From: Eubacteriales bacterium
GTDB taxonomy: Bacteria; Bacillota; Clostridia; Oscillospirales; CAG-272
Reading direction: 5' to 3'
DNA: 60,028 bases
Assembly: GCA_045123255.1 (NCBI GenBank)
Contig: JBGVIN010000069.1
Coordinates: 1 to 60,028 of the forward strand
This document shows positions 5,747-25,794 of this stretch, in pieces (the stretch's first letter is position 1; the number at the start of each line of letters is the position of its first letter). The notes beneath the pieces are model-generated. The model was not told the origin of the DNA and ran no database searches. It was given only the letters and a program-made list of their open reading frames with translations. Made by a program: the position numbers and the translations under genes.

Positions 5747-5779
5747 GATAAAACCTCCGAATATTCTGTTTATGAAAAA

Positions 5780-5808
5780 ATTATATCACATAAAATTTCC
5801 AAAGTCAA
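5780..5808 (-). promoter_or_regulatory. sigma-A promoter for scfA operon
   Basis: TTGACT-17 nt-TATAAT with TG extension on minus strand. Confidence 0.8.
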
Positions 5809-5842
5809 CACAAATTTTCAAAAAGAAATAATTAAAAATAGA

Positions 5843-5871
5843 TTGATTTATTGAAAAAAGTATGCTACAAT
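5843..5871 (+). promoter_or_regulatory. sigma-A promoter for cyclophilin-like gene
   Basis: TTGATT-17 nt-TACAAT with TG extension. Confidence 0.65.
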
Positions 5872-5914
5872 AGGTGAGTAAATGCTTTTTAGAAATATTT
5901 GAAAGGATAATTTT

Positions 5915-8185: not shown

Positions 8186-8321
8186 TCAAGCTTAAAAAGT
8201 GGGCGAACTCAAAAACAATGAGCAACCTTGAAAGCAAAAGGCAAGCTCAAAAAGAGGAAAAACCTCAAAACGCCCGACCCTGTGTGCGAAATTCAATGCT
8301 TTCACACAAAAAATAGCAACC

Positions 8322-8349
8322 AAAAGCCACCGATTTCGGTGGCTTTTTT
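8322..8349 (+). terminator. Intrinsic terminator
   Basis: AAAAGCCACCGA-TT-TCGGTGGCTTTTTT. Confidence 0.85.
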
Positions 8350-8418
8350 GCACCTCACCGGTTGCCCACAAACCATTTGCCCACCTCTCAACCACAACCT
8401 ACCCCACAAGCGCCTGCA

Positions 8419-8488
8419 CTCACCCCAACCTCGACACCACTCACCCTAACCTCAAAACCGCTCACCCTAACCTCAAAACCGCTCACCC
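8419..8488. repeat. 21 bp tandem repeat in a C-rich tract
   Basis: CTCACCCTAACCTCAAAACCG exact twice (8440, 8461), one degenerate copy (8419) and one partial copy. Confidence 0.85.
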
Positions 8489-8563
8489 CCTCGCCTTAGC
8501 CCCATCCCCACCCAAAACCAACGAGACGAACCGATAGACGAACCGATAGGTCGAAAATTGTTG

Positions 8564-8592
8564 TTGACAAATATTACTTTATATTATATAAT
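8564..8592 (+). promoter_or_regulatory. Consensus sigma-A promoter of the polysaccharide locus
   Basis: TTGACA-17 nt-TATAAT exact; preceded by AGACGAACCGAT x2 (8524-8547) and followed by palindrome GTGTGC-CT-GCACAC (8605-8618). Confidence 0.9.
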
Positions 8593-8646
8593 AAATATGT
8601 ATGCGTGTGCCTGCACACAAATTTTTAATATATTTAAGAGGAAAAT

Positions 8647-9288
8647 ATGTATAAGCATTTTTTGAAACGAGTTTTTGATTTTTTGGCTGCCACCGCAGGA
8701 ATCGTGGTGTTGTCTCTCCCTATGATAGTTATTGCAATTGCTATCAAAATTGATAGCCGCGGTCCTGTGTTCTTTAAGCAGAAGCGTGTCGGCAAAAACA
8801 AAAAGCATTTTAATATTATTAAGTTTCGCACTATGCGCGTTGATACTCCACATGATGCCCCAACGCACGAGCTTTCCGATCCTAAAAAGTGGATTACCAA
8901 GGTTGGCGGCTTCCTTCGCAAAACCTCACTTGACGAGCTTCCACAGCTTTTTAATATTTGGCTTGGTCAAATGGCTGTTATCGGACCTCGTCCTGCGCTT
9001 TGGAATCAATATGACCTTATTGAGGAGCGCGACAAATACGGTGCAAACGACGTGCGCCCGGGACTTACAGGATGGGCACAAATCAACGGCCGTGACGAGC
9101 TTGAAATCGACGTTAAGGCAAAGCTCGATGGCGAGTACATAGAAAAAATGGGACTTTTCTTCGACATTAAATGCTTCTTTGGCACAATTTTCAGCGTCCT
9201 TAAGCGCGACGGCGTTGTCGAGGGCGGCACCGGCGAAATGAAAAAGCAAGAAGCCGAAAAAGAACAAGAGGAGACTATACTGAAATGA
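8647..9288 (+). CDS. Priming sugar transferase (Bac_transf family phosphoglycosyltransferase)
   Basis: KRVFD, GPVFFKQKRVG, KFRTM, LRKTSLDELPQL, GPRP, RPGLTGWAQINGR. Confidence 0.95.
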   Translation: MYKHFLKRVFDFLAATAGIVVLSLPMIVIAIAIKIDSRGPVFFKQKRVGKNKKHFNIIKFRTMRVDTPHDAPTHELSDPKKWITKVGGFLRKTSLDELPQLFNIWLGQMAVIGPRPALWNQYDLIEERDKYGANDVRPGLTGWAQINGRDELEIDVKAKLDGEYIEKMGLFFDIKCFFGTIFSVLKRDGVVEGGTGEMKKQEAEKEQEETILK

Positions 9289-10199
9289 ATTGTAATCGTA
9301 TAGAAACCAGAAGTGATGATAAAAATTTTGGTTTGGTTTCAATAATAATGCCTACTTATAAGCAAGGTGAACTTATGCACAAGGCGGTTCAGTCTTTGAT
9401 TAATCAAACCTATACAAATTTTGAACTATTGGTAATTGACGATAATAAAGAAGAATCGTATCGAACAGCAAATAGTGAGTATTTTGCTTCGATAAATGAC
9501 AATCGTATTACATATATTCAAAATGAGCAAAATATGGGTTCTGCACGTACGAGAAATAGAGGAATCTCTTTGGCCAAGGGTGAGTATATTTCTTTTTTGG
9601 ACGATGATGATTATTATGATGCATTCAAATTGGAAAATCAGATTACACAGATGCATAGGCAAAACGCAGATGCTTCGGTTTGTAATTTAATTTTGTTTAA
9701 CGAAGATGGCAAGGTTGTCGATAAAAGACGCAGAAAATATCTAAAAAGAAACGAATCCATCTTAATTGCACACTTAAAATATCACATAACCGGAACGGAT
9801 ACGATGATGTTCAAGGCAGATCTCATAAGAGAGGTTGGCGGTTTTGACGAGGAAGATCTCGGCGATGAGTTCTATCTTATGTACAAGATAATTCAAAAAG
9901 CACAACGATTTATTCATGTTGATTATGACGGCGCGTTTGCTATTGTACACAATCAGGCAGGACTTTCCAGCGGTGACAACAAAATCAAAGCAGAAGAAAA
10001 GCTTATCAAATTTAAGCAGGAGCAATTTGGACTTTTAAGAAAAAGAGATATTCGATATATAAGAATGCGTCATAATGTTGTTTTAGCAATGGCTCATAAG
10101 AAAAATAAAACTTATTTGAAGTGCTTGCTCTCTCTCGTATGGGCAGGGTTACAAAGTCCGTTTGGTATGCTTAACATACTGATTGGCAATGATAGGTAG
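9285..10199 (+). CDS. Glycosyltransferase family 2
   Basis: VSIIMPTY, ELLVIDD, RNRGI, FLDDDD. Confidence 0.9.
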   Translation: MNCNRIETRSDDKNFGLVSIIMPTYKQGELMHKAVQSLINQTYTNFELLVIDDNKEESYRTANSEYFASINDNRITYIQNEQNMGSARTRNRGISLAKGEYISFLDDDDYYDAFKLENQITQMHRQNADASVCNLILFNEDGKVVDKRRRKYLKRNESILIAHLKYHITGTDTMMFKADLIREVGGFDEEDLGDEFYLMYKIIQKAQRFIHVDYDGAFAIVHNQAGLSSGDNKIKAEEKLIKFKQEQFGLLRKRDIRYIRMRHNVVLAMAHKKNKTYLKCLLSLVWAGLQSPFGMLNILIGNDR

Positions 10200-10217
10200 T
10201 AAGAAGTCGGAGAAAAA

Positions 10218-11291
10218 ATGATAATTTTACATATTTTTAATTCGTTAAACCGAAAATACGCGGGAACGGATGTGGTAATTCCAGAACATATTAAAACGCA
10301 CCAAAACTTTGAAACTATTGGAGCGATAAACTTGTCAAATCTGTTAGTGAATGGGGTAGACAACCAGCTTGCTTATATCGATGATTTCAATTTTGAAAGC
10401 CTACCTGCACCATTTGACAAGCCGGATATAATAATTTTTCACGAAATATATTATCCTAAATTTTTGTCTATCGCAAAAAAGGCAAGGAGAAAAAATATAC
10501 CATATATCATAATCCCTCATGGCAGTATGGCAAAGCAAGCGCAGAAAAACAAGCGTTTGAAAAAGGTATTAGGGAATATTTTATTCTTCAACAAATTTAT
10601 GAACGGGGCGGCCGCTATACAGTATCTTTCAGAGGATGAAAAAAATCGTTCGTTTAGAAATTTTCCTTGCTTCGTTTCTACAAATGGCCTCAATATGCCT
10701 ACCCAGCAAAAGGAAAAATTCAACGAGGACAAGCTAGTTTTTTCCTACATCGGTAGATATGATACACATATAAAGGGACTTGATTTACTTATAGATGCTA
10801 TAAAGCAAAAGGAACAGCTTGTAAGAAATAACGATTGCGTTTTCAATCTTTACGGTCCACAGAATGATTATTATATTGACAATATAAATTCTCTGAAAGC
10901 TATCATTGAAGAAAAAGGTCTTTCAGATATTGTGATTATAAATGGCCCTGTTTTGGGAGAAGAAAAGAAAAACATTCTTTTAAGTACGGATGTTTTTATA
11001 CAATGCTCTCGCACTGAAGGCATGCCAATGGGTATTTTGGAGGCGATGAGCTACGGAATTCCTTGTCTTATTACAAAGGGAACGTCATTAACAAAGGTGC
11101 TTGAAAAATATGATGCCGGATACGGTTGTGAAACAAGTGTGGATGGCATTGCAAGCGCAATAGAAAAAGCAATTTTGGAAAAGCACCTTTTAGAAGAAAA
11201 ATCAAAAAATGCAATTAATCTTATAAAAAGCGAATTTTTGTGGGAAAACGTTGCAAAGGACGCTTTAAAAAATTATAGAAAATTTATTTAA
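10218..11291 (+). CDS. Glycosyltransferase family 4 (GT-B fold)
   Basis: YIGRYD..KGLDLL, SRTEGMPMGILEAMSYGIP. Confidence 0.9.
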   Translation: MIILHIFNSLNRKYAGTDVVIPEHIKTHQNFETIGAINLSNLLVNGVDNQLAYIDDFNFESLPAPFDKPDIIIFHEIYYPKFLSIAKKARRKNIPYIIIPHGSMAKQAQKNKRLKKVLGNILFFNKFMNGAAAIQYLSEDEKNRSFRNFPCFVSTNGLNMPTQQKEKFNEDKLVFSYIGRYDTHIKGLDLLIDAIKQKEQLVRNNDCVFNLYGPQNDYYIDNINSLKAIIEEKGLSDIVIINGPVLGEEKKNILLSTDVFIQCSRTEGMPMGILEAMSYGIPCLITKGTSLTKVLEKYDAGYGCETSVDGIASAIEKAILEKHLLEEKSKNAINLIKSEFLWENVAKDALKNYRKFI

Positions 11292-11308
11292 TCATTTAGA
11301 GGTAAAAA

Positions 11309-12418
11309 ATGTTTTTATTTGAACGCCTTGTCGGTGTTGGTACGTATTCCGCTATTCTTCTTATAGTCTGTTATTTAATTTCGCGACTAAAAAGTGAAAA
11401 AAGTGTAAGAATAGTGTTGTTTATATATACTATAGCTCTTACTATTATGGGCTTTTTTTATGTGCCGCATGTTACCGCCGATCTTTATCGAACATACGGA
11501 TTTCTTGACTATTTTAGAACATTTGAATTCAAGGACTTTTTGGAAACTTATCGGAATTCAAGTACGATTATTGCAAATATATACTATTGGTTCATTTCAA
11601 AAACGGGAGAGAATAGGCTATTGCCCGCTATTACGGCATTCGTTTCTTATTTCTGCATTTTTTACGTTTTTAGAAAAACAGCAGAAAAATATAGTATAAG
11701 CAAAAAAAATCTAGCCGTAGCATTGTTTTTCTATATGTCAATAGGAAGTTATATATACGTTATTTCGAATATTAGAACTATGCTTGCAATTTCTCTTATC
11801 GTTTTTTGCTTTTTTAGAGAAGCGGTTGAAAAGAAATTTAGACTGTACCACATTTTGTTATATGTAATAGCGGCATTTATGCATAATCTTGCGGTTGTTG
11901 TAATTCTTATTCGTCTCGTTATACCATTGGTTTCCAGATCAACAAGTATCTTTAGAAGAATTGCATATATAATCTTTTTTGTTGCGATTTCTGTTTTTAT
12001 TACATTCAATCTACGAGAATTATTGGATGCTGTGATTAAAAGAGCGGAGAATTATTTAGGCGGAAATATATATTCATATTTTTGGGATTACTTGATTGGA
12101 GTGTTAGTTGCTGTAGTATCAGTGATTGTGCTTTTGAATGTAAAATGTAAGCAACATGGCAATGGTGAACTTTCTCAAATAAAAGCTTTTTCGCTTTCAT
12201 GCATCGCAATAGCGCTTGTGTTTAGTTTCGAATTTTCCACATTCCATAGACTTGTCACATATGTAAATGCTATCACTGTAACACCGCTAGTTATGATATG
12301 TTCGGATAAACAAGAAACTAAGAATGTGCAGAAATTCATACTCTTTATATCATTTATTCTATTGTTCCTTTCTTGTTCGCGCGGCTCGCTTTGCTCGCTA
12401 AAATTCTTTGTTTGGTAA
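11309..12418 (+). CDS. Polysaccharide polymerase, EpsG/Wzy-like
   Basis: About 10 hydrophobic segments; ADLYRTY, NIRTMLAISL, AAFMH motifs; locus context. Confidence 0.75.
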   Translation: MFLFERLVGVGTYSAILLIVCYLISRLKSEKSVRIVLFIYTIALTIMGFFYVPHVTADLYRTYGFLDYFRTFEFKDFLETYRNSSTIIANIYYWFISKTGENRLLPAITAFVSYFCIFYVFRKTAEKYSISKKNLAVALFFYMSIGSYIYVISNIRTMLAISLIVFCFFREAVEKKFRLYHILLYVIAAFMHNLAVVVILIRLVIPLVSRSTSIFRRIAYIIFFVAISVFITFNLRELLDAVIKRAENYLGGNIYSYFWDYLIGVLVAVVSVIVLLNVKCKQHGNGELSQIKAFSLSCIAIALVFSFEFSTFHRLVTYVNAITVTPLVMICSDKQETKNVQKFILFISFILLFLSCSRGSLCSLKFFVW

Positions 12419-12427
12419 GGAGTGCTT

Positions 12428-13549
12428 ATGAAAAAAGAGCGCAATTACGGCGTTGATTTATTAAGAATATTTCTAATGCTGATGATAGTGGCAGGACATT
12501 TGTTTGTACATACGGGGGCAAGGGATGCGCTGCCGAATTATTCTCTTGAGTGGGGATATACGTGGATTTGTCAGACAATAATTTTATGTGCCGTTAATTG
12601 CTTTGTTTTGATAACCGGGTATTTTGCTAATGTAAATTCATATGCTATTCGTATAAGGAAAATTATGCTTTTGTATGGACAAGTATTTTTTTATTCCGTT
12701 AGCATATATATCGTTTTGTTAGTGATAGGGAAAATAGATTTTTCGATAACGGGAGCTATACGCGCTGTTTTTCCGTTTTTGAGCGGACAATATTGGTTTT
12801 TCTCGTCATATATTCTTCTTATGATTTTGATGCCGTTTCTTAATTACATGTTAAGCAATCTTAGTGATTTTGCATTAAAAATATTGACCGCTATAATTGT
12901 TTTGTTGTTCTACTTTTTGCCAATATTCAAAATTGTGTTTATTCAATTCGACAAAAGTGAAGGAATGGGTATTATAGGTTTTGTAACCTTATATATAATA
13001 GGACATGCATTAAGCCGTTTCAAACTTAAAATATCTAAATTTAAGTGCGTGATAGGTATTGTTCTTAATTGCGCAATAATGTTTGCTTCTAAAATTGTAC
13101 TTGCTTACATTGTAGAAAAAGCGCAAATGAATGCCGGTAGTAGCTTGTTGTACAACTATAATATGATAACACAACTAATAAACGCGACACTTCTTTTGTT
13201 CTTCTTCAAGGGAATAAAAATCAAACGCAGAGGAATTAAGTTGATAAGCTTCGTGTCGGCATCTACATTTGGAATATATTTGTTGCATGAGCATCCTAAT
13301 ATGAGAAGAATTATATGGAATGAACAGTTGAAAAATCTATTGCTTGAATCTAATGCGGTGGCTTTTATAATTTTATCTCTCGCCATGCCGCTCGCACTAT
13401 TTTTGATTTGCTTGCTTGTGGATATAATAAGACGGCTTTTGGCCAAGGCGTTTGCGAAGCTCAAGCCATTGCAAAAAATCAATAAAGGACTGATTGAGCT
13501 TGAAAATAAGATAAATGAAAAAATGATAACTAAAAAGGAAGAAAAATGA
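12428..13549 (+). CDS. Membrane O-acyltransferase (acyltransferase family 3)
   Basis: RNYGVDLLR, AVNCFVLITGYF, YWF, FGIYLLHEHP; start may be GTG at 12422. Confidence 0.88.
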   Translation: MKKERNYGVDLLRIFLMLMIVAGHLFVHTGARDALPNYSLEWGYTWICQTIILCAVNCFVLITGYFANVNSYAIRIRKIMLLYGQVFFYSVSIYIVLLVIGKIDFSITGAIRAVFPFLSGQYWFFSSYILLMILMPFLNYMLSNLSDFALKILTAIIVLLFYFLPIFKIVFIQFDKSEGMGIIGFVTLYIIGHALSRFKLKISKFKCVIGIVLNCAIMFASKIVLAYIVEKAQMNAGSSLLYNYNMITQLINATLLLFFFKGIKIKRRGIKLISFVSASTFGIYLLHEHPNMRRIIWNEQLKNLLLESNAVAFIILSLAMPLALFLICLLVDIIRRLLAKAFAKLKPLQKINKGLIELENKINEKMITKKEEK

Positions 13550-14529
13550 AATTGATAAGTGTCATAGTTCCTGTTTACAAGGCTGAAAGGTATCTTGGCG
13601 AATGCGTTGACTCTATTTTAAACCAAACGTATGAAAGCTTTGAACTTATCTTAGTTGATGATGGCTCTCCCGATAACAGCGGCAAAATTTGCGATGAATA
13701 TGCAAAAAAAGATGAAAGAGTAAAGGTTATTCACAAAGAAAACGGTGGGGTTTCTTCAGCGCGCAACACGGGAATTGATAATGCAAAAGGCGAGTACATA
13801 ACATTTGTTGATTCCGATGATGTAGTGGACAGGCAGTATCTCGAGCTTATGTACAAAAGAATCAAAGAAACAAAGTCCGATATGTGCTTTTGCCATTTTG
13901 ATAGATTTGATGAAGAAGTATATGTAGAGTATAAAGAAACAATCCCTGAATTTCTGACTATAGATTTTGATGATGAGAAATTCATAAATTTTGCAAATTC
14001 GTTTTTTAATTTGAAAAAGAACGTTTTTGGAAGCGCGTGTCGAATACTTTTTAAAAAACCTATTGTGAATATGCTAAGATTTAACACGAAAATTAAAATT
14101 AGCGAGGATTTGGTTTTTACTTTGAATGCGATTTTCAATTCTAGGTCCATTTGTTCAATACAAAATGTTCTTTATCATTATAGAACGAACTTTGCTTCAG
14201 TTGGACAAACATACAAAAAGAATTTTTTAACGAGTCAGCTTGAGTTGCAAAAAGAATTAGAATTGATATTTGCTCGTTTTAATGGGAGAACCGCTAAAAA
14301 AATTTCAGAGTTATATTTTTGCTTGATTTGTTACTATCTTTTTTCTAACGAACTGAAATTCCGAAAAATAAACTCCGACTATAAGAAAAATTTGAATCAC
14401 ATAAGAAAAAGTGAGCTTTATTCTTATTTCAAATTTAAAAATATATTAAAACTAGGCGATGGTACGATAAAACAGAAAATGAAACACTCAATTATTTGGT
14501 TTCTTGCAAAGACCAGAATATGGGGATAA
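13546..14529 (+). CDS. Glycosyltransferase family 2
   Basis: ISVIVPVY, LVDDGSPD, NGGVSSARN, FVDSDD, SED. Confidence 0.92.
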   Translation: MKLISVIVPVYKAERYLGECVDSILNQTYESFELILVDDGSPDNSGKICDEYAKKDERVKVIHKENGGVSSARNTGIDNAKGEYITFVDSDDVVDRQYLELMYKRIKETKSDMCFCHFDRFDEEVYVEYKETIPEFLTIDFDDEKFINFANSFFNLKKNVFGSACRILFKKPIVNMLRFNTKIKISEDLVFTLNAIFNSRSICSIQNVLYHYRTNFASVGQTYKKNFLTSQLELQKELELIFARFNGRTAKKISELYFCLICYYLFSNELKFRKINSDYKKNLNHIRKSELYSYFKFKNILKLGDGTIKQKMKHSIIWFLAKTRIWG

Positions 14530-14593
14530 AAAGCAAATAGAATGCTTTTTGAGTTTTGTGTTAAAGAGACCATAATAAAAGTAGGAAAATAAA

Positions 14594-15745
14594 ATGATAT
14601 TTAAGTTATTAAAATGTGCGCTGAGTGGCGAGGTGCTGGGTGACGAGGCGCTTGTTGATGTTGCGGCGTTGGATGTGGACGGATGGAAGGAAATATACAG
14701 CACATCTAAAAAGCACGATTTGGCTCATATGGTGGGCTATGCATTGAGTTTGTCTAACGCTCAAATTGAAGGCGATGTTAAAAAGGCGTTTGACAGAATT
14801 GTCAACATGGCATCGTTTCGCTACGTTAAAAAAAGCTACGAGTTAGACGCTATAAAGGGTGCGTTATCACAGGCTCAAATTTGCTTTTTGCCGCTCAAGG
14901 GCTCGGTGATTTGTGATTACTATAAGGAGCCTTGGCTCAGAACAAGCTGCGATATCGATCTTCTTGTAAAAAAAGAGGATTTGGAAAAGGCAAAATGCGC
15001 TATTATCGACACTCTCGGTTACGAATTGCAACCATCGTCAACCATGCACGACGTTTCGTTAATGTCACCAAGCGGTGTGCATCTTGAGCTTCATTTTGAA
15101 TTGAAAGAAGAGCTTTTTAAGGAGTCACAGCTGCTAAGTGATATTTGGGTTGGCGGCGAGCTTGTGCCTGCTTCCGAATATGAATATCAAATAACAAACG
15201 AGATGTTCTTGTTCTACCATATTTACCATATGGCAAAGCATTTTCAAAATGGAGGCTGCGGTATTAAGCCTCTTCTTGACTTGTGGATTATTAAAAATAA
15301 AATGGGCTATGACGAGGAGAAGGCAAGGGCACTTCTTGAAAAAGAGGGTTATTTTGTTTTTTACGAGAGGGCGCTTGATTTGATGAACGTGTGGCTCGAA
15401 AGCGGTGAGCATACCAACATTACTAAGAACCTCGAAAACTATATACTTAATGGTGGAGTATATGGCTCGCTTGAACAAAACATTATAATGTCACAAAGCA
15501 AAAAGGGCGGAGCCTTCAAAAATCTATGGCGTAGAATCTTTTTGCCCTATAGACTACTAATTATAAGATATCCGTCTCTGAAAAAATTCCCGCCCTTGTA
15601 TCCTCTTTATTTGGTCATTAGGTGGCTTAGAATTATATTTAGCAGGGACAGAGGTCACGCATTTGATGAATTGAAGGTAAATCAAAAAATCTCGCAAACC
15701 GAAAGAGATGCCGCGAAAGCGCTAAATGAAGAGTTGGGCTTATAA
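14594..15745 (+). CDS. Uncharacterised nucleotidyltransferase-family protein (NTP_transf_5-like)
   Basis: LPLKGS, RTSCDIDLLV, LELHFEL, HMAKHF..GGCGIK..LDL. Confidence 0.8.
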   Translation: MIFKLLKCALSGEVLGDEALVDVAALDVDGWKEIYSTSKKHDLAHMVGYALSLSNAQIEGDVKKAFDRIVNMASFRYVKKSYELDAIKGALSQAQICFLPLKGSVICDYYKEPWLRTSCDIDLLVKKEDLEKAKCAIIDTLGYELQPSSTMHDVSLMSPSGVHLELHFELKEELFKESQLLSDIWVGGELVPASEYEYQITNEMFLFYHIYHMAKHFQNGGCGIKPLLDLWIIKNKMGYDEEKARALLEKEGYFVFYERALDLMNVWLESGEHTNITKNLENYILNGGVYGSLEQNIIMSQSKKGGAFKNLWRRIFLPYRLLIIRYPSLKKFPPLYPLYLVIRWLRIIFSRDRGHAFDELKVNQKISQTERDAAKALNEELGL

Positions 15746-15767
15746 ACATAAAATAAAGGAAGATGAA

Positions 15768-16727
15768 ATGAGTAAAAATATTAAGGTTTCAATTATTTGT
15801 TTGGTTTATAACCACGAGCCATATTTGAGAAAATGTCTTGATGGCTTTGTAAATCAAAAATGTAATTTTGAATATGAGGTTTTAATACACGATGACGCCT
15901 CTACTGATAATTCTGCAAGAATAATACGAGAATATGAGGAAAAATATCCAAATATAATTAAACCTATATATCAGAAAGAAAACCAACATTCAAAAGGTGT
16001 GAAAATATCAGCCACGTTTTTATATCCCAACGCTCGAGGTGAGTACATCGCATGGTGCGAGGGCGATGACTATTGGACAAACGAAAACAAATTACAAAAA
16101 CAGGTTGATTTCTTGGACTCGCACTCTGAATATATTGCGTGCGCACACAAATACGATGTGATAAATAAAGAAGGAGACAAGGTTGATAAGATAACGTTTG
16201 GATATTACGAGAATGAGGGAGTTTATACCCTTGATGATTTTCAAAAATATGAAATGCCAAGTCAGCTTGCGACCTTTGTTTACAGAAATATATTCACAAA
16301 AAACATTGAAAAGTATAGATTTTTTGATGATGTGACACTCCCCGGAGATATGAAAGCGGTTTTGTTTATGCTGCTTCACGGAAATATATATAGACTAAAT
16401 GAGAAGTATTCTGTCTATAGGCATGTCTCTGAAATTGGAGGGGATTCTTGGTCTTCTCGAATATTGAGAGAAAAAAATCGCGCGCGTAAAACATGGTTGG
16501 GATTAAGAAAATTAGAAAAAATAGTAAAAGAAAAATATGGAATAAAATTAGATTTCAAAACGAGAAAAATGCAAGTTGCGTTTGCTGATATTCATTCTGA
16601 AAAAAATTTGTTCAAAGTGATTAAGAAAACAGTATATTATTTGTTTAGACAACCGGGATTAATTGTTATATGCTTTGATAAGATTATCAGAGGAAAAAAA
16701 GGGGATTATCTAAAGAAAAAATTATAG
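15768..16727 (+). CDS. Glycosyltransferase family 2
   Basis: VSIICLVYNHE, HDDASTD, CEGDDYW; start reassigned to ATG at 15768 after AAGGAAG. Confidence 0.9.
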   Translation: MSKNIKVSIICLVYNHEPYLRKCLDGFVNQKCNFEYEVLIHDDASTDNSARIIREYEEKYPNIIKPIYQKENQHSKGVKISATFLYPNARGEYIAWCEGDDYWTNENKLQKQVDFLDSHSEYIACAHKYDVINKEGDKVDKITFGYYENEGVYTLDDFQKYEMPSQLATFVYRNIFTKNIEKYRFFDDVTLPGDMKAVLFMLLHGNIYRLNEKYSVYRHVSEIGGDSWSSRILREKNRARKTWLGLRKLEKIVKEKYGIKLDFKTRKMQVAFADIHSEKNLFKVIKKTVYYLFRQPGLIVICFDKIIRGKKGDYLKKKL

Positions 16728-16756
16728 CCATATTCAATTTTGCTGAAAGGATAAAA

Positions 16757-18214
16757 ATGGGAAACAATATTTCAAAAGCGCTTGGCTGGAAGCTTTTTGA
16801 ACGCTTTGGAGTCCAAGGCGTGCAATTCGTTTTGCAAATAATACTTGCAAGATTACTTTCTCCAGAGCACTATGGAGTTCTTTCCATAATGATTATATTT
16901 ACAACTCTTGCTAATGTATTTATACAAAATGGCTTCAATACCGCTTTGATACAAAAAAAGAATGTAAAAGAGGATGATTTTTCTTCCGCGTTCTGGGTGT
17001 CACTGGCAATAGCTGCGGTTGCGTACATAGTGTTGTTTTTCTCCGCACCTTTAATCGGTAAATTTTATAATATGCCTGAAATTGTAAAACCGTTTAGATA
17101 TCTTGGAATAATGCTTTTTCCGGGGGCTCTAAATTCAATTCAGCTTGCTAAGGTTGGCAGAGAAATGAACTTCAAAAAGGTTTTTATAAGTAACCTTGGA
17201 GCAATTTTAATATCAGGTCTTGTAGGTGTAGCAATTGCATATATGGGCGGTGGAATTTGGGCTCTTGTTGCACAGAGTCTGCTTAATACCTTTATTGCGG
17301 CTATTGTTATGATGCTGACGGTAAATTGGGCACCTAGGTTTGTTTGTGATTTGAAAAGAGTTTCCGAGCTTTTTAGCTTTGGTTGGAAGTTGCTTGTTTC
17401 CGGACTAATTGATACTCTTTATCAAGATTTGAGAAGCTTGGTGATAGGTAAAAAATACGACAGTGGCACGCTTGGGTACTACAACCGAGGAAGGCAATTC
17501 CCACAATTTTTGATGAACTCTATAAATAGTTCTGTTCAAAGCGTAATGCTTCCTGCGATGTCCAAAGAACAAGATAATAAAGCTAAGGTTAAGGCTATGA
17601 TGCGCACATCTATGTCTGTTAGCGCATATATAGTGTTTCCGATGATGGCGGGCCTTGCCGCAGTTGCAGTTCCACTTATATCAGTTTTGTTAACCGACAA
17701 ATGGCTTCCTGCCGTTCCATATATGATGATATATTGCTTTACTATGGCGTTTTATCCGGTACATAGTTGTAATTTGCAGGCGATAAATGCAATGGGCAGG
17801 AGTGATATATTTTTAAAGCTGGAAATCATAAAGAAAGTAATAGGTGTTACATCGCTTGTTGTAGCGGTATTTTGCTTTAATAGTCCTATTGCAATAGCAA
17901 TGACCGGTATATTTACAACGCTAATTAGCTCATTCGTAAACGCGTTCCCAAATAAAAAATTGATAGGCTATTCTTATTTCGAGCAAATAAGAGATTTATT
18001 GCCATCGCTTTTAGTATCGGGCATAATGTTTGGCGCGGTTTATGCAATGTCATTTATAAAATTACCTAATATTGTTATTTTAATTATGCAAGTTTTTGCA
18101 GGTGTTGTGATTTATATTGCGCTGTCTGCAATATTTAGATTAAAAGGATTTAGGTTCGTTAAAATTAAGTTTGTTTCTATCATAAAAAAAGTCTTAAAAA
18201 GAAAGCATGGTTAA
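16757..18214 (+). CDS. wzx: Wzx flippase (polysaccharide biosynthesis protein)
   Basis: LARLLSPEHYG, ALIQKK, LGYYNRG, ~12 TM segments. Confidence 0.9.
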   Translation: MGNNISKALGWKLFERFGVQGVQFVLQIILARLLSPEHYGVLSIMIIFTTLANVFIQNGFNTALIQKKNVKEDDFSSAFWVSLAIAAVAYIVLFFSAPLIGKFYNMPEIVKPFRYLGIMLFPGALNSIQLAKVGREMNFKKVFISNLGAILISGLVGVAIAYMGGGIWALVAQSLLNTFIAAIVMMLTVNWAPRFVCDLKRVSELFSFGWKLLVSGLIDTLYQDLRSLVIGKKYDSGTLGYYNRGRQFPQFLMNSINSSVQSVMLPAMSKEQDNKAKVKAMMRTSMSVSAYIVFPMMAGLAAVAVPLISVLLTDKWLPAVPYMMIYCFTMAFYPVHSCNLQAINAMGRSDIFLKLEIIKKVIGVTSLVVAVFCFNSPIAIAMTGIFTTLISSFVNAFPNKKLIGYSYFEQIRDLLPSLLVSGIMFGAVYAMSFIKLPNIVILIMQVFAGVVIYIALSAIFRLKGFRFVKIKFVSIIKKVLKRKHG

Positions 18215-18507
18215 ATATGCAATTATTCTATGAAATCAATCATGAGTTGCTTTGGAATAGGTAGGTTCATCTTTTCCGGTGATGCTTTTTATGAGATAGA
18301 TCAGGTTTTTATTGACGAAAAGCACTTGGAAAAGGCGATACTCATTTCTTCTTTTTGGAAGAAGAATAATGCAGTCATACGAGCGAACATAATTGGTAAC
18401 GGAGCTTGTGAAATGGTTGAATAGTAAAATGGTTGAAAATATACACGTATTTGAATTGGAAATCAAGGAGTTTTAAGAACTATTGAAAAAGAGAGAAGGG
18501 TTTGTTT

Positions 18508-19770
18508 ATGGATTTTAATGGAAAAAAACTTTTAATTTTAGGCGGAGCTAATTTGCATTGCAAGTTGGTTAAAGCTGCAAAGGAAATGGGAATTTATACT
18601 ATAGTTACAGACTACTTAACAGAGTCGCCTGCAAAGAAAATAGCTGATAAAAGCTATATAATTGATATAAATGATATTGACGGAATGGTTAAGATGTGTA
18701 AGGAAGAAAATGTCGATGCTGTGCTCAGTACCCATCTTGATCCATGCCAAAGACCGTATTATGAGATTTGCCATAGGTTAGGTCTGCCTTGTTACATAGA
18801 TACGTGGGAACAGGTTTATACGTTGACCGACAAGGATGCTTTCAAAGAGCTCTGCGTTAAAAATGGAGTGGATATCATTCCTACCTACTGCATGGAAAAT
18901 TTAAGCGAGGCAGAATTTCCCGTTTTAATTAAGCCTGCGCACAGCCGAGGATCGCGAGGACAAACTGTGTGTTATAGTTTGAATGAGACAGAAAAAGCAA
19001 TTACTTTGGCAGAAGCGGAATCTGATAATAAAAAAGCCATTATTGAAAAATATATGGGTAATAATAATGATTTTACTATGACATATATTTTCAAGGATGG
19101 GGTTGCCTATATGACGAAAACTTCAGATAGATACTTAGGAGACTTAGAGTTAGGACTTGAAAAGGTAGGAATAGGAACAATTTCTCCTTCTTATTATACT
19201 GATATGTATACGGAAAAGGTTGAATCTAAGGTTCTGAAGATGCTTTGTGACCTGAAAATCAAGAATGGTCCGGTGTTTATGCAGGGATTTGTCGATGGGG
19301 AAACAGTTCGATTCTATGACCCCGGTTTTAGATTTCCAGGAAGTGAATACGATACGATGTTTGAAAAGATTTGGAACATCGACATAATGAAAATGATGGT
19401 TTGCTTTGCATTTACCGGAAAAATGAAAGACGATTATGGTGAATTGAATCATCAACTTGCACTTTTGAAAGGGAAAAACGTAATTACTTTGTTCCCGCCT
19501 ATGAAAAGTGGATATATATCAAAAATAGAAGGATTAGAGGAAATAGCTAATATGCCGCAGGTGACAGGGTATACTTTGCGCCACAATGTGGGGGAAACGG
19601 TCGGATTTACGAGAGATGTTAATCAAAGATTTGGCGAATTTGATATCATCGGTGAGAATTTGGACGAACTGAAGAAAATAATTGAAAAGGTTCAAAATGT
19701 TTTAAACGTCCTTGATGAAAATGGCAATAATTTGTTGTACGGAGAATTAAAAGTCGAACAAATTCATTAA
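18508..19770 (+). CDS. ATP-grasp fold ligase
   Basis: KKLLILGGA, TDKDAFK, FPVLIKPAHSRGSRG, IIEKYM, FYDPGFRFPG. Confidence 0.85.
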   Translation: MDFNGKKLLILGGANLHCKLVKAAKEMGIYTIVTDYLTESPAKKIADKSYIIDINDIDGMVKMCKEENVDAVLSTHLDPCQRPYYEICHRLGLPCYIDTWEQVYTLTDKDAFKELCVKNGVDIIPTYCMENLSEAEFPVLIKPAHSRGSRGQTVCYSLNETEKAITLAEAESDNKKAIIEKYMGNNNDFTMTYIFKDGVAYMTKTSDRYLGDLELGLEKVGIGTISPSYYTDMYTEKVESKVLKMLCDLKIKNGPVFMQGFVDGETVRFYDPGFRFPGSEYDTMFEKIWNIDIMKMMVCFAFTGKMKDDYGELNHQLALLKGKNVITLFPPMKSGYISKIEGLEEIANMPQVTGYTLRHNVGETVGFTRDVNQRFGEFDIIGENLDELKKIIEKVQNVLNVLDENGNNLLYGELKVEQIH

Positions 19771-19783
19771 CTGGGAGGAAAAT

Positions 19784-21058
19784 ATGCCACTTGATATATT
19801 AAGTTTAATAATTTTTATAGTTTGCATTGGAATTTTTATATGGGACAGACTTCCAATGGCAACAACTGCTATACTTGGATGCGTGGCGATGGTTTTGTTC
19901 GGCGTTTGTGATTTCAAAACAGCGTTTGGACAATTTGCTTCAAGTACGGTGATCTTGACAATAGGAGTAATGGTGATCGGTGCAGCTATTTCGGAGACTG
20001 GCTTGGCCGCAACGATAGGTGCTTGGATTGTAAAGATATCCAAGGGATCGGAGACAAAGCTAATTATAGGCACATATTTGGTTTCTTCAGCTATGTCTGC
20101 ATTCTTAACCAACTCTGCGGTTCTTGCCATATTCATTCCTATAATTATGGGATTGTCTGCCTCCAATCAAAACATTCGCGCCAAAAATTTAATTATGCCG
20201 ATAGCATTTGGTTGTGTAATCGGTGGTGCATCTACGCTTGTCGGCTCCACACAGCAAATGACCGCACAAGGACTTTTAGAGGAGGCAGGTCTTAGAACCT
20301 TTAAAACATTTGATTTCACATTGGTAGGCGGCGTGCTTATTCTTTTAGGACTTGTATATTGCCTCACAATAGGCAGAAAGCTTGCAAAAAGGATTTGGGA
20401 AAAGGAAGATGAAAGTAGCGACGTTGAATATTCGATTCCGCAAGATCACCCCCAAAAAGGAAAGGCTAAAAAAATAATAATTGCCGTTATTTTCTCTTTG
20501 ACAGTATTGTTTTACATTACCGAGTGGGTTCCGCTTGCCGTTACAAGCACAACAGCGGCATTACTTTGCATAATTACAGGATGCATAACTCAAAAAAAGG
20601 CGATAACCGCGGTCAACTGGAACATAGTTGGTAGACTTGGCGGATGCCTTGGTCTTGCTAAAGCATTGGAAGCTGCTGGGGGTACGGATCTTATAGCTAA
20701 AGGATTTAGCTATTTGATTGGCGATAAACTCAGTCCGTTTATTCTTTTCTGCATATTGGTTTTATTAATTCAAGTGAGTAGCGAATTCATGTCGAATTCG
20801 ACAGCTATATTGGTAGTTTTGCCAATAGTTATTGCAATAGCTCCGGGCTTGGGCTTAAACACATACGCGTTCGCGCTTGGAATAACGCTTGCATCAGGAG
20901 TAGCATTGAGCTGTCCACTTGCGAGCTCTACACTTGGAATGTCGATGTGCGTTGGATATAAGTTTAAGGACTATGCAAAATATTCATTAATATTCGATGC
21001 GATTTCATACATAACAATAATTGCACTTGTTCCGTTAATTTACGGATTGAAGGCATAA
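19784..21058 (+). CDS. SLC13/DASS-family anion (di/tricarboxylate or sulfate) permease
   Basis: SAFLTNS, GGASTLVGS, SEFMSNS motifs in two inverted halves; many TM segments. Confidence 0.85.
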   Translation: MPLDILSLIIFIVCIGIFIWDRLPMATTAILGCVAMVLFGVCDFKTAFGQFASSTVILTIGVMVIGAAISETGLAATIGAWIVKISKGSETKLIIGTYLVSSAMSAFLTNSAVLAIFIPIIMGLSASNQNIRAKNLIMPIAFGCVIGGASTLVGSTQQMTAQGLLEEAGLRTFKTFDFTLVGGVLILLGLVYCLTIGRKLAKRIWEKEDESSDVEYSIPQDHPQKGKAKKIIIAVIFSLTVLFYITEWVPLAVTSTTAALLCIITGCITQKKAITAVNWNIVGRLGGCLGLAKALEAAGGTDLIAKGFSYLIGDKLSPFILFCILVLLIQVSSEFMSNSTAILVVLPIVIAIAPGLGLNTYAFALGITLASGVALSCPLASSTLGMSMCVGYKFKDYAKYSLIFDAISYITIIALVPLIYGLKA

Positions 21059-21071
21059 TAAAGAGGATAAT

Positions 21072-22169
21072 ATGATAAACGTAACACGCTCGTCGATGCC
21101 TTCTTACGAGGAGTATTGCGAGGAAATTAAAGAACTTTGGGAAACGCGTTGGCTCACAAACAACGGCGCAAAGCATAAGCAACTTGAGCTTGAACTGAAG
21201 GAGTATTTAGGTGTGCCTAATATAAGCCTTTTCACAAACGGACATTTAGCACTTGAAATTGCTATTTCCGCTATGGGTTTTCCATTTGGCGGTGAGGTTA
21301 TTACAACTCCGTTCACGTTTGCTTCAACCACGCATGCAATTGCAAGAAATGGACTAATTCCTGTTTTTTGCGACATAAACTCCGTTGACTATACGATAGA
21401 TGTGTCGAAAATAGAATCACTTATAACCGACAAAACAGTTGCAATTGTGCCTGTGCACGTATATGGAAATATGTGCGATGTTGAAGAAATCGAAAAAATT
21501 GCCCGAAAACATAATTTGAAGGTGATTTACGATGCTGCGCATGCGTTTGGTGTAAAATACAAAGGAGTGTCATCCGCTAGTTTTGGCGACGCTTCCATGT
21601 TTAGTTTTCATGCTACAAAGGTATTTAATACCATTGAGGGGGGAGCGGTTACATATAATGACGGATTACTTTGCGATAAGCTAAACGATATGAAAAATTT
21701 CGGTTTGCACACTCCGGAACAAGGAATTTATGTGGCGGGCAATGCTAAGATGAATGAATTTCAGGCCGCCATGGGTATTTGCAATCTTCGCCATATTGAT
21801 GGGGAAATTGAAAAGCGCGGACAAGCTGTAAAGAGATACCGTGAAAGACTTTCGAGCATTGACGGAATTGTTCTTTGTCCAAAACAGGAAAACATTGACG
21901 AAAACTATGCGTATTTCCCTGTTTTATTCAACGGATACAAATATACGCGCGATGAAATATTTGAAAAGCTAAAGGAAAATGATATTATAGCAAGAAAATA
22001 TTTCTATCCGCTTATAAACGGCTTTGATTGCTATAAGGAGCTTGAAACGGCCGGCGAAGAAAAAACGCCAATTGCAAAGCATATAGCAGAGAACATATTA
22101 ACCTTGCCGCTTTTTGCTGAATTAACAGAGGAAACGGTTGATAAAATTTGTGATATTATTCTTAATTAA
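21072..22169 (+). CDS. DegT/DnrJ/EryC1/StrS sugar aminotransferase (VioA-like)
   Basis: WLTNNG, TPFTFAST, YDAAHAFG, SFHATKVFNTIEGG, NAKMNEFQAA. Confidence 0.92.
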   Translation: MINVTRSSMPSYEEYCEEIKELWETRWLTNNGAKHKQLELELKEYLGVPNISLFTNGHLALEIAISAMGFPFGGEVITTPFTFASTTHAIARNGLIPVFCDINSVDYTIDVSKIESLITDKTVAIVPVHVYGNMCDVEEIEKIARKHNLKVIYDAAHAFGVKYKGVSSASFGDASMFSFHATKVFNTIEGGAVTYNDGLLCDKLNDMKNFGLHTPEQGIYVAGNAKMNEFQAAMGICNLRHIDGEIEKRGQAVKRYRERLSSIDGIVLCPKQENIDENYAYFPVLFNGYKYTRDEIFEKLKENDIIARKYFYPLINGFDCYKELETAGEEKTPIAKHIAENILTLPLFAELTEETVDKICDIILN

Positions 22170-22181
22170 TAAGGAGCATAT

Positions 22182-23054
22182 ATGAAAGGTATTATTTTAG
22201 CAGGCGGAAAGGGAACGCGACTTTACCCTATGACAAAAGCGGTATCTAAGCAGCTTTTACCGATTTACGATAAGCCGCTTATTCACTATCCGTTGTCAAT
22301 ACTTTTACTTGCGGGAATTAATGATATTTTAGTGATTTCAACTCCTGAGGATACTCCTGTTTATGAAAAGCTACTTGGCACGGGCGAGGAGATAGGAATC
22401 AAGCTCTCCTATAAGGTTCAAGAAACACCGCGCGGTCTCGCGGATGCGTTTATCCTTGGAGAAGAGCATATAGGAAACGATAGCGTTTGTCTTATTCTCG
22501 GAGATAACGTTTTCTATGGTCCAAACCTAACAAGGATTTTGAATGAAGCAATGAAAAACGACACAGGGGCGACCATTTTTGGTTATCCGGTGAAAGATCC
22601 ACGCGCGTTTGGTGTTGTAGAATTTGACAAGAATCATAAGGTTATTTCAATTGAGGAAAAACCGCAAAATCCTAAATCAAACTATGCGGTGCCTGGTCTT
22701 TATTTCTATGACAATAGAGTAGTTGAGATTGCAAAAAACGTAAAGCCGTCAGCTCGTGGTGAAATAGAAATAACTGCGGTAAATAATGCATACCTTGAAA
22801 TGGGCGAATTAAACGTTGCGCTTCTTGGTAGAGGTATGGCTTGGCTTGATACGGGTACACCTGAGGGCATGCTCAAGGCATCGGAGTTTGTAAAAACTGT
22901 TCAAGACCGTCAGGGCTTCTATGTGTCCTGTATTGAGGAGATTGCGTGGCGTCGCGGATTTATTTCAACTGAGCAGCTTCTCGCTTTGGGCGAAAAGCTA
23001 AAAATGACCGAGTATGGACAGTACTTGATTTCACTTGCGAAGGAAGGTAAATAG
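22182..23054 (+). CDS. rfbA: Glucose-1-phosphate thymidylyltransferase
   Basis: [45 protein letters not shown]. Confidence 0.97.
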
Positions 23055-23055
23055 T

Positions 23056-24075
23056 ATGACAATTATCGTAACAGGCGGTGCGGGATTTATTGGCTCGAAC
23101 TTTATATATCACATGCTGGAAAAGCACGGGGATTACAGAATAGTGTGCGTTGACTGCTTGACGTATGCGGGCAATCTTTCGACGCTTGAGGATGCGCTTG
23201 ACTATCCCAATTTCAAGTTTTACAAGACTGACATTTGCGACAGAGAGGCGATATATAAAATATTTGAGGATGAAAAGCCGAATATCGTTGTAAACTTTGC
23301 GGCGGAGAGCCACGTTGACCGTTCGATTGACAATCCCGAGGTGTTTCTTAAAACAAATATTCTCGGAACACAGGTTTTGATGGACGCGTGCCGTAAATAC
23401 GGCATAGACCGATATCACCAGGTATCAACAGATGAGGTTTACGGAGATTTGCCTCTTGACAGACCCGACTTGTTCTTCACCGAGGAAACTCCGATACATA
23501 CGAGCAGTCCGTATAGCGCGTCGAAGGCGGCGGCAGACCTTTTGGTGCTTGCTTACCACAGAACCTACGGCTTGCCTGTGACCATTTCAAGATGCTCAAA
23601 CAACTATGGTCCATATCACTTTCCCGAGAAGCTCATTCCGCTTATGATTGCTAATGCGTTTAACGAAAAGCCTTTACCTGTGTACGGAAAAGGCGAAAAT
23701 GTACGCGACTGGTTATACGTTGAGGATCATTGCAAGGCGATTGATTTGATTATTCACAATGGCAGAGTCGGCGAGGTTTACAACGTGGGCGGCCACAACG
23801 AAATGGCTAACATTGATATCGTTAAGCTAATTTGTAAAAAGCTTGGAAAAAGCGAGGATTTAATAACCTACGTTGCGGACAGAAAGGGTCACGATATGCG
23901 TTATGCTATTGACCCAACGAAAATCCACAGAGAGCTTGGTTGGCTTCCTGAAACTAAATTTGCTGACGGCATTGACAAAACGATAAAGTGGTATCTTGAT
24001 AACAGAGAGTGGTGGGAAACTATAATCTCCGGTGAGTACCAAAATTACTACGAAAAAATGTATAAAAACAGATAA
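23056..24075 (+). CDS. rfbB: dTDP-glucose 4,6-dehydratase
   Basis: TGGAGFIGSN, AAESHVDRSI, STDEVYG, YSASK, NNYGP; start ATG at 23056. Confidence 0.97.
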   Translation: MTIIVTGGAGFIGSNFIYHMLEKHGDYRIVCVDCLTYAGNLSTLEDALDYPNFKFYKTDICDREAIYKIFEDEKPNIVVNFAAESHVDRSIDNPEVFLKTNILGTQVLMDACRKYGIDRYHQVSTDEVYGDLPLDRPDLFFTEETPIHTSSPYSASKAAADLLVLAYHRTYGLPVTISRCSNNYGPYHFPEKLIPLMIANAFNEKPLPVYGKGENVRDWLYVEDHCKAIDLIIHNGRVGEVYNVGGHNEMANIDIVKLICKKLGKSEDLITYVADRKGHDMRYAIDPTKIHRELGWLPETKFADGIDKTIKWYLDNREWWETIISGEYQNYYEKMYKNR

Positions 24076-24115
24076 AAACAGACACAGGGTCGATAAAAAC
24101 CCTGTGTTTTTGTTT
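24076..24115. terminator. Bidirectional intrinsic terminator
   Basis: ACACAGGGT/ACCCTGTGT stem flanked by A- and T-runs between convergent genes. Confidence 0.75.
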
Positions 24116-24240
24116 GGTGTGTGGTTGAATTTGAGCTGGCGGGGCAATAAAGGCGGAGCGGTTGAGTTGCTTGGCGCGGACGGTGCGGTTGGTATCTTTG
24201 GTGTGGGGTGCGGTTGTTGTTTTAAGGTGACGGTTTGGTT

Positions 24241-25530
24241 TTAGCTATCGCTTAAAAAGTGAAGGGCGAGGGCGGTCAAGGTGGCGGCGCCGAAGGGGAG
24301 CGCGCGCTCGTCGAATATAGCTTTTGGATTGTGCAGTGGGTATGAAAAGCCCTCGCTTGGCTTTCCCGTGCAAAGACCTATTAGAAGTGAGGGCGCGTGC
24401 TTGGCAAAAACCGCAAAATCCTCGCTTGGAGTGCTTGATTTTATTTTTGATTTCGGTGCAAGTATAACGCTTGCTTTGTGTGTGATTTTTGAGTTTGAAT
24501 ATAGTGATTTCAGACACTCCTCGGCACTTTTTGCTAATTCTTCGTCGCAAAACAATGCTTCTGTGGAGCTTGTTATTTCCAAATTTGTGTTGCATCCGTG
24601 CATTTGTGATGTTTGGTTGCAAATTGCGTTCAATTCTTTGAACGCGGTTCGCCTTGCATCCTTTGAAATTGCCCTCGTCGTGCCGAAGATTTCGCATCTT
24701 TCGGGGATAACGTTCGGTGCGCTTCCGCTTGATATTTGACAAATGCTAACCGTGAAGCCTTCGGGGTTGGCTTTTGACAGGCTCTCGCTTTTCAACGCAA
24801 TAGACGCTCCGCAAATTGCGGCGTTTTTGCTTTCCGACGGAGTTGCACCGTGCCCACCCTTGCCGTTAACCTCAATTTTGAAAAAATCCGCATACGGTGC
24901 GCTCATTTCGCTGCTTGGCAATATCAGCGTCCCTGTTTCGTACTCTGTTCCCAACACAATGTGTAAAGCAAAGCAAGCGTCCACCGTGGGATTTTCAAGC
25001 ACGCCCGCATCTACCATTTTCTGCGCTCCGCACAGTATCTCCTCCGCGCTTTGGAAGGCGAGCTTTACAGTGCCGCAAAATCTATCTCGGCTTTGGCTTA
25101 AAATGTGCGCCGCACCCAAAAGCGAAGCTGTGTGCATATCATGACCGCACGCGTGCATATTGCCATTTTTCGAACGGTAGCTTAATTCCGTTTCCTCACG
25201 AATCGGTAGTGCGTCAATGTCCGCGCGGAGTAGCACGCACCTGCGATTTTTTGGTGAAGTCTTTCCCTCGTCCGTAACCTCCGGGCTTTCTTTTTCGTCT
25301 ATATAGTTGAAGGAAGAAAATTTCTTTTCGTCGCCTCCGTGTATTTCGCAAACGACACCGCCGCCAGATAGCCGAGGGCTTAACCCCATCTTTTTCAGCT
25401 CGCGTGCGATAAATTCTTTTGTTTTTTCCGTTTCAAAGCGCACTTCAGGCATGGCGTGGAGCTTGCGCCGCCAGCTTATTAGCTTGTCTTCAATTTCAAA
25501 GCATTCTTCTAAAATTCGATAGTATTTCAT
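24241..25530 (-). CDS. M20 family amidohydrolase
   Basis: RRKLHAMPE, LRADIDALP, MHACGHD, FQSAEE, SEDF, LHNP. Confidence 0.92.
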   Translation of the reverse strand: MKYYRILEECFEIEDKLISWRRKLHAMPEVRFETEKTKEFIARELKKMGLSPRLSGGGVVCEIHGGDEKKFSSFNYIDEKESPEVTDEGKTSPKNRRCVLLRADIDALPIREETELSYRSKNGNMHACGHDMHTASLLGAAHILSQSRDRFCGTVKLAFQSAEEILCGAQKMVDAGVLENPTVDACFALHIVLGTEYETGTLILPSSEMSAPYADFFKIEVNGKGGHGATPSESKNAAICGASIALKSESLSKANPEGFTVSICQISSGSAPNVIPERCEIFGTTRAISKDARRTAFKELNAICNQTSQMHGCNTNLEITSSTEALFCDEELAKSAEECLKSLYSNSKITHKASVILAPKSKIKSSTPSEDFAVFAKHAPSLLIGLCTGKPSEGFSYPLHNPKAIFDERALPFGAATLTALALHFLSDS

Positions 25531-25794
25531 AAGCACCTCACTTGGTTAAATTCTTGCCCGAAAAATGAAAAAATATTCCTAATTAAACTAAATAAGCAAC
25601 CGAAAAGGTGGCATTTTGAAGCATTTTTGGACTGTGAAAAAACGCGTTGCTTGCGAAAAAAATCAGATTCGTAAAGTGGAAAATATCTGAACGAAAACGC
25701 CTTGTGTGAAAGTTATGTGAAATGTCTACGAAAAGTTTATGAGACGAAACTGAAACTTTGGAATTTGGCAACATTTTTTATTTATAATGTGATA

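Follow-up and report, generated by a model that had tools for sequence, protein, structure and literature searches.

Intergenic variable-number tandem repeat (VNTR) or minisatellite arrays of bacteria consist of tandem units that are gained and lost between strains. The G-quadruplex of pilE in Neisseria gonorrhoeae and the immunoglobulin switch regions are G-rich, strand-specific elements that have been proposed to start recombination. Here, we describe two non-coding tracts of intense strand skew, at 8351-8548 and 24113-24240, that lie on the two sides of a polysaccharide operon of an Eubacteriales bacterium (contig JBGVIN010000069.1 of the assembly GCA_045123255.1, hereafter G000; coordinates are those of the window, i.e., the whole stretch of 60,028 nt that was analyzed). 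Like minisatellites, the tracts have tandem units of 12-21 nt whose copy number differs between strains, but they stand apart by their extreme strand skew, by forming a mirror pair at the ends of one operon, and by a skew that is found across species without the sequence. As in pilE and the switch regions, a G-rich element confined to one strand adjoins a variable locus for a surface structure, but there is one weak quadruplex motif here, on one side, and silent donor copies are lacking.

Recombining DNA with GC and TA skews that are intense and agree in sign has been described under the name of GRINS, and the cause of these skews is left unexplained (PMC8256042, 2021). GRINS are coding, exceed 500 bp, and are duplicated at more than 80% identity. 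The tracts have this kind of skew, but in length (198 and 128 nt), duplication, and coding context they fall outside the definition. Both GRINS and the tracts have G+T versus C+A skews of the same sign with an abrupt change over about 150 nt, a tie to recombining DNA, and a skew that extends to synonymous positions, whereas the tracts are short (128-198 nt), single-copy, intergenic, and placed at a Firmicute glycan locus instead of a polyketide synthase (PKS) (PMC8256042). In our best reading, they are in effect a short, single-copy, non-coding analogue of the GRINS-type skew. The original prediction, made from the sequence of the window, knew of no named description of such a pattern; this no longer holds, given that the intense correlated skews of GRINS are linked to gene conversion (PMC8256042), even if the tracts do not fit the definition. 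Among the literature listings and abstracts searched, we found no description of skewed tracts at the borders of polysaccharide loci, a statement on which single-copy or non-PKS cases in the supplementary material of the GRINS paper may bear. GRINS are so far tied to long duplicated coding DNA, and this locus provides a small non-coding case.

The tracts are a real feature that stands out statistically and is conserved locally, while most of the generalization made in the original prediction fails. We lean, tentatively, towards reading them as non-coding spacers of minisatellite type that are restricted to a lineage, and whose skew is maintained by a strand-asymmetric process acting locally at both borders of the operon.

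Two skewed tracts at the ends of one transcription unit

The whole genome of G000 (125 contigs, 1,996,126 nt) was scanned in windows of 120 nt, among which the difference between the counts of G and C (G-C) has a standard deviation of 7.7. The most extreme windows of the genome are those at 8392 (G-C of -57) and 24114 (+41), i.e., one in each tract. An absolute value of at least 30 is reached in just 14 windows genome-wide. The window at 14573 (+32) has the fourth-largest value, tied with three others, and the remaining outliers are mostly intragenic with a G-rich coding strand. We also ranked the intergenic spacers of at least 80 nt, as delimited by our own crude calls of open reading frames (ORFs), by their G-C per 80 nt. 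The left tract is first among the 698 spacers of G000 (-40) and the right tract is second (+28), for a 99th percentile of 22. The counts given in the original prediction were exact upon recount: 64 C versus 8 G at 8401-8520, 53 G versus 13 C at 24121-24240, and 34 G versus 9 C at 14621-14690.

Within each tract, the GC and TA skews agree in sign (-0.67 and -0.40 in the left one, +0.62 and +0.49 in the right one). Hence, the strand running inward in the 5' to 3' direction is A+C-rich at both borders and the outward strand is G+T-rich. The tracts are 15.7 kb apart and of opposite polarity, at both ends of one transcription unit and immediately outside its promoter-to-terminator unit. The portions of the tract that are not repeated are just as G-poor as the repeated ones. 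Since contigs from independent studies contain both tracts, an assembly artefact is excluded and the tracts are real sequence. The features of the two borders are given below, with tandem repeats called by TRF and domains by Pfam and NCBIfam (TIGR) models.

5915-8185, + strand: left flanking gene, pointing to the locus and encoding a protein of 756 aa with a cyclophilin-type PPIase domain (Pfam PF00160, E = 2.4e-16)
8322-8347: intrinsic terminator hairpin of 11 pairs (6 G-C), with an A-run before and a T-run after it (bidirectional form), which ends the left flanking gene
8351-8548, + strand: left tract, non-coding, 198 nt (59 A, 95 C, 19 G, and 25 T on the + strand)
8417-8489, + strand: tandem repeat in the left tract, 21-nt unit in 3.5 copies (TRF, 90% matches, score 104)
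8486-8513, - strand: possible G-quadruplex motif, four runs of at least 3 G with loops of at most 9 nt (regular expression scan)
8524-8549, + strand: direct repeat, 12-nt unit in 2.2 copies (TRF, 100% matches), 15-40 nt upstream of the -35 box
8564-8592, + strand: operon promoter, TTGACA and TATAAT with a 17-nt spacer (12 of 12 consensus matches)
8647-24075, + strand: Wzx/Wzy-type polysaccharide operon of 14 ORFs, with a GC content of 32-44% versus about 44-47% in the flanks
24080-24109, found on both strands: bidirectional intrinsic terminator, common to the operon and the converging amidohydrolase gene
24113-24240, - strand: right tract, non-coding, 128 nt (15 A, 13 C, 56 G, and 44 T on the + strand)
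24207-24243: 19-nt repeat in 1.9 copies at the edge of the right tract (TRF)
24241-25536, - strand: right flanking gene, an M20-family amidohydrolase (Pfam PF01546) pointing to the locus

The first seven ORFs of the operon encode the priming transferase, a GT2, a GT4, an EpsG-like polymerase, an acyltransferase, another GT2, and NTP_transf_5; they are followed by a GT2, the Wzx flippase, an ATP-grasp ligase, a CitMHS transporter, a DegT aminotransferase, RmlA, and RmlB. The amidohydrolase also matches TIGR01891 (260.8 bits for a cut-off of 153.75), and the right tract directly abuts the stop codon of its gene.

Variation between strains and related species

Strains were compared by aligning contigs of independent metagenome studies to the region 5700-25650; as these are contigs and not reads, they inform on presence and form, not on expression. 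The left flanking gene is about 99% identical in the contigs of runs X2, X6, and X12. A contig of 6911 nt from X2 has 23 differences over 2747 nt of the left flank (about 99% identity). It contains the start of the left tract with five substitutions, after which the 93 nt of 8447-8539 are swapped for 60 other letters. A contig of X6 has an insertion of 30 nt after 8365, which corresponds to two further copies of a 15-nt unit. At the other border, a contig of 7022 nt from X2 has the right tract with a deletion of 25 nt at 24182. In this contig, position 15718 is joined to 24072 via 55 other letters, and 8353 nt of the operon (15719-24071) are gone, with the genes encoding the GT2, Wzx, the ATP-grasp ligase, the CitMHS transporter, DegT, RmlA, and RmlB. 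The nucleotidyltransferase gene is thus next to the terminator in this strain. This loss shows that the locus is truly variable and that the tracts remain with the flanks. The contigs listed for the RNA run X7 end at 8253, i.e., before the left tract, and the conserved words that adjoin the tract matched no record in the metagenome contig collection, which therefore provided no further conspecific loci.

Two side observations concern the flanks in these strains. The PPIase-domain gene has a 3' untranslated region (8208-8253) that varies by insertions and deletions (indels), as contigs of X6 and X7 step back by 46 nt and have inserted letters there. The amidohydrolase flank (24241-25650) is 5-9% diverged in X2 and X6, versus about 1% in the left flank, which would be expected from hitch-hiking of diversity with the variable locus.

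The comparison with related species shows where the tracts are missing. The genome G014, with about 81% identity in the flank, has the same terminator, promoter, and locus position, with 39 nt between terminator and promoter; its right spacer is of about 50 nt, versus about 130 nt in G000. In G012, which is more distant, both the terminator and the promoter are likewise present, separated by an AT-rich spacer of about 45 nt. Relative to these two species, the tracts are discrete extra DNA, not older sequence altered by substitution. The frame around them is stable, since the left terminator (8322-8347) and the promoter (8564-8592) are kept in G014, G064, and G012, the promoter is matched in further members of the genus, and the right terminator (24080-24109) is kept in G014 and G064. 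The 12-nt repeat at 8524-8549 was kept in neither G014 nor G064, and a search with the left tract gave a self-match alone in G000 and no match in 49 other genomes of the genus. As a side observation, a non-coding block of 26 nt upstream of the left terminator (8274-8299) is identical in G000 and G014, and the word ACCCTGTGT is common to this block and the right terminator (24100-24108).

The genome G064 has about 83% identity (about 17% diverged) and a left spacer of 132 nt with 54 C and 23 G. We sampled the first 20 kb or less of all its 76 contigs (1.17 Mb) and ranked the 386 spacers found there. The left spacer comes first, with -27 per 80 nt, which is milder than in G000. The right spacer is 116 nt long and comprises 32 G, 21 C, 44 T, and 19 A. 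Similarity between tracts was assessed by local alignment against 500 dinucleotide shuffles, and the tracts of G000 and G064 align no better than these, as scores no lower than that of the real pair were obtained with 98 of 500 shuffles on the left and 207 of 500 on the right. Between species, composition and polarity thus persist when the sequence does not.

Extra DNA of mirror orientation, directly outside the promoter-to-terminator unit and missing from G014 and G012, could be a remnant of the terminal inverted repeats of a mobile element, since decayed, or of the ends of an imported segment that once bore the operon. However, the left tract resembles the reverse complement of the right one no more than shuffles do (score of 27 for a shuffle mean of 22.6, with 69 of 500 shuffles scoring as high in G000 and also 69 of 500 in G064), and G014 and G012 share the promoter, the terminator, and the position without having the tracts. 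Furthermore, a scan of 21 ORFs between 7 and 29505 gave no transposase or integrase, and the amidohydrolase tails of G000 and G064 have no common derived protein sequence. We consider this origin very unlikely.

Codon skew in neighboring genes and other low-GC islands

The original prediction extended the pattern into genes that border AT-rich cassettes. We measured codon skew as the third-position G-C over 40 codons, ranked it among 1197 genes of G000, and then compared it with that of orthologues. The skew does run into the end of the amidohydrolase gene: the last 40 codons (24244-24363) have a value of -15 (0.9th percentile of 1197). The corresponding value is -13 in G064 and -5, -1, +1, -5, -1, and -4 in six species without tracts. 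Among the in-gene examples, the 3' end of the amidohydrolase gene is the only one that co-varies with the tract in the way that had been proposed.

Two other examples have the codons but not the link to a border. The end of lysS is indeed rich in C-ending codons (-17 in the last 40 codons, 0.5th percentile), but third-position C (C3) is abundant there in five of five species (-16, -10, -15, and -10 in the four others). In the priming transferase, 10 of the 14 codons at 9193-9234 end in C, for a total of 13 C versus 17 G, and this is also conserved: codons 160-200 have -13 in G000 and -8 or less in six of seven species, in differing contexts. The conservation of C3 across species means that it is intrinsic to these two genes. 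The G-ending codons announced early in rfbB are absent, since its first 40 third positions comprise 10 A, 10 C, 10 G, and 10 T (60th percentile). The remaining example is within the operon.

14594-14690, + strand: G/T-rich 5' end of the NTP_transf_5 gene (39 G, 10 C)
14618-14652: 15-nt repeat in 2.3 copies within this 5' end (TRF)

The first 40 codons of this gene have an excess of third-position G over C of +9 (98.7th percentile), a value that concerns G000 alone, without orthologue comparison. A general rule of in-gene ramps is not supported, as three of the five examples correspond to conserved codon usage or are absent. The same is true of the claim that such borders accompany variable DNA generally, since 13 other low-GC islands have no comparable border tract; the largest value at their borders is -35, in a window within a minus-strand gene.

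A milder spacer with more C than G follows the terminator of lysS (59326-59495; 45 C and 22 G in 170 nt). It precedes a small ORF of lower GC content (59496-59810) and is overlapped by a minus-strand ORF of 86 aa.

Possible causes of the strand bias

If the tracts are kept skewed by a local process, they would lengthen and shorten by slipped-strand duplication and loss of units of 12-25 nt, while a strand-asymmetric process would hold the inward strand A+C-rich and the outward strand G+T-rich; any function of the tracts would then depend on composition and not on sequence. A candidate cause is deamination, as C>T and A>G changes in a strand that frequently lies single-stranded would result in an excess of G+T. 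The single-stranded state could be that of the 3' tail of recombining DNA or of the strand displaced by outward transcription. In terms of geometry, the outward G+T-rich polarity matches the strands that carry the 3' ends in a linear fragment covering the locus, and it also matches the non-template strands of transcripts leaving the locus. We infer that the skew is maintained by a local mutational asymmetry and that the tracts are linked to the locus, whereas a role in recombination is possible. What speaks for such a process is the position of the tracts as first and second of the genome, their nature of extra DNA, their tandem units, the indels between strains, the skew across species, and the excess of C in the adjacent codons.

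Several results weigh against it. The right spacer of G064 is ordinary (rank 162 of 386), and the tracts are restricted to two species and one locus. The 13 islands without tracts leave a process general to variable DNA unsupported. A parsimony count at the end of the amidohydrolase gene gave 4 T>C and 2 A>C in 14 changes, too few for a spectrum. The mirror polarity is that of a single locus and, given two tracts, has a 1 in 2 chance. Slippage alone preserves composition, and an extra process may therefore be needless. The last point leads to purely neutral minisatellites, in which C-rich units were seeded by chance and amplified by slippage, the border position and the mirror polarity being coincidental. 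Tandem units, indels between strains, the lack of sequence conservation across species, the dispensability of the tracts in G014 and G012, the absence of structure or of an Rfam family, and the unremarkable right spacer of G064 are all in line with this. On the other hand, it is improbable that the first and second of 698 spacers fall by chance at the borders of one operon, the non-repeated parts are equally G-poor, the skew persists in a species that is about 17% diverged and where it again ranks first, and the C3 excess of the neighboring codons is confined to the species with tracts. We find neutral minisatellites a rather doubtful explanation.

The original prediction read the pattern as the footprint of strand-biased mutation or gene conversion at recombination anchors, which may hold. 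The variable locus with tracts retained by the flanks, the skew without sequence similarity in G064, and the synonymous C of the amidohydrolase gene agree with that reading. It is not matched by the nature of the tracts, which are extra DNA made of tandem units and varying by indels, and the polarized substitutions of the amidohydrolase gene are too few to carry it. The in-gene examples that are conserved or absent and the low-GC islands without border tracts also count against it.

The tracts might instead be cis elements acting through their composition, either by outward G+T-rich strands that promote the recombination of donor DNA (3' tails preferred by RecA or Chi-like, or a quadruplex as at pilE of Neisseria) or by a G-rich non-template strand whose R-loops halt transcripts on their way out of the AT-rich locus. 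As noted for the geometry, their outward strands would be the 3'-ended ones of such a linear fragment, and they are retained while the locus is remodeled between strains. AddA is present, with AddA-like matches of 339, 212, and 132 bits in G000, split over two contig ends. RecA is reported to have a preference for TGG-type repeats (PMC3763553), and the GC skew of gene ends is reported to favor R-loop termination in human genes (PMC3787257). When loops of 1-12 nt are allowed, G000 has 12 quadruplex motifs, one of which is in the left tract (with a 9-nt loop); there are none with loops of 1-7 nt. However, the same regular expression scan gave no quadruplex motif in the right tract, no outward promoter passed the promoter scan, the sole strain junction observed (24072) is within the terminator and not in a tract, and the tracts are absent in G014 and G012 despite the same operon frame. 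The words shared by the tracts are also neither over-represented nor strand-skewed, as described below. Overall, we consider such cis elements unlikely.

A cluster of Chi-type hotspots was a specific version of this idea. Some words common to the G-rich strands contain the Bacillus Chi pentamer. The test was restricted to words shared by the tracts, with gene orientation as a proxy for the strand (r = 0.88 with GC skew over 65 contigs). Genome-wide, these words were neither enriched nor strand-skewed (AGCGG 862 versus 656, observed/expected of 0.9; GCGGTT 453 versus 295, observed/expected of 1.23; GAGCGGTT 10 versus 12). We thus rejected the Chi-type cluster for the tested words, while the host's own Chi may differ. 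On a side note, addA is split between contigs C5 (23989-25377) and C107 (35139-37166), which are therefore probably neighbors.

The alternative offered in the original prediction was that of Rho-loading (rut-like) tracts insulating foreign DNA, which would halt transcription from the flanking genes into the locus. The composition is suggestive: like rut regions and C>G "bubbles", the tracts would give a C-rich, G-poor, unstructured sense RNA 3' of genes and at the edge of AT-rich acquired DNA. The inward RNA is essentially unstructured (minimum free energy of -2.7 to -6.6 kcal/mol per 128-150 nt), and both flanking genes point inward. Yet, none of the 23 genomes of the genus that are at least 90% complete reaches the cut-off of TIGR00767 (rho), whereas 8 of 14 known control genomes exceed it. 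The best matches have about 43 bits and were read, from score, length, and pairing, as probable ATP-synthase subunits. Similarly, the Rho_RNA_bind domain (PF07497) has no match in G000 and is found in 9 of the 14 controls. In contrast to rut regions, the tracts are thus in a genus without Rho, which refutes this reading, and the left one sits behind an intrinsic terminator; we regard a rut function as extremely improbable. These results show that a rut-like composition is no proof of a Rho site and that the presence of Rho needs to be checked first.

A more far-reaching hypothesis, which we consider highly speculative, is that the tracts are cis elements encoded by composition, which delimit the part of a surface-glycan operon that is exchanged in gut Clostridia lacking Rho. 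Their outward G+T-rich strands would end up as 3' tails of incoming donor DNA, or as the strand displaced in R-loops, and would in this way bias the site and frequency of cassette swaps. If true, the tracts would be to bacteria what switch regions are to immunoglobulin genes, and they would extend GRINS to non-coding, single-copy DNA. Whatever their role, cassette content and tract length both vary by strain, and there is one sister species with a tract and two relatives without. This natural series of loci with and without tracts could separate recombination intermediates, transcription, and slippage alone as sources of the skew.

Other identities were tried and rejected. A replication origin was dismissed, as TTATCCACA is absent from both tracts at one mismatch or less and dnaA is on another contig. 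Matches to Rfam RNA families were sub-threshold and on the terminator hairpin (8283-8352), with none on the right side, and neither strand folds into more structure than shuffles. Some frames of the C-rich strand are open by composition alone and the left tract comes after the terminator, for which we rejected a coding remnant; homologues were not sought. Finally, beyond the amidohydrolase gene, an ORF of 1067 aa (26302-29505, + strand) has no Pfam family and a best NCBIfam match that is sub-threshold. It sits in a region of extreme skew of A over T, with values of 0.31-0.45 across 27-30 kb.

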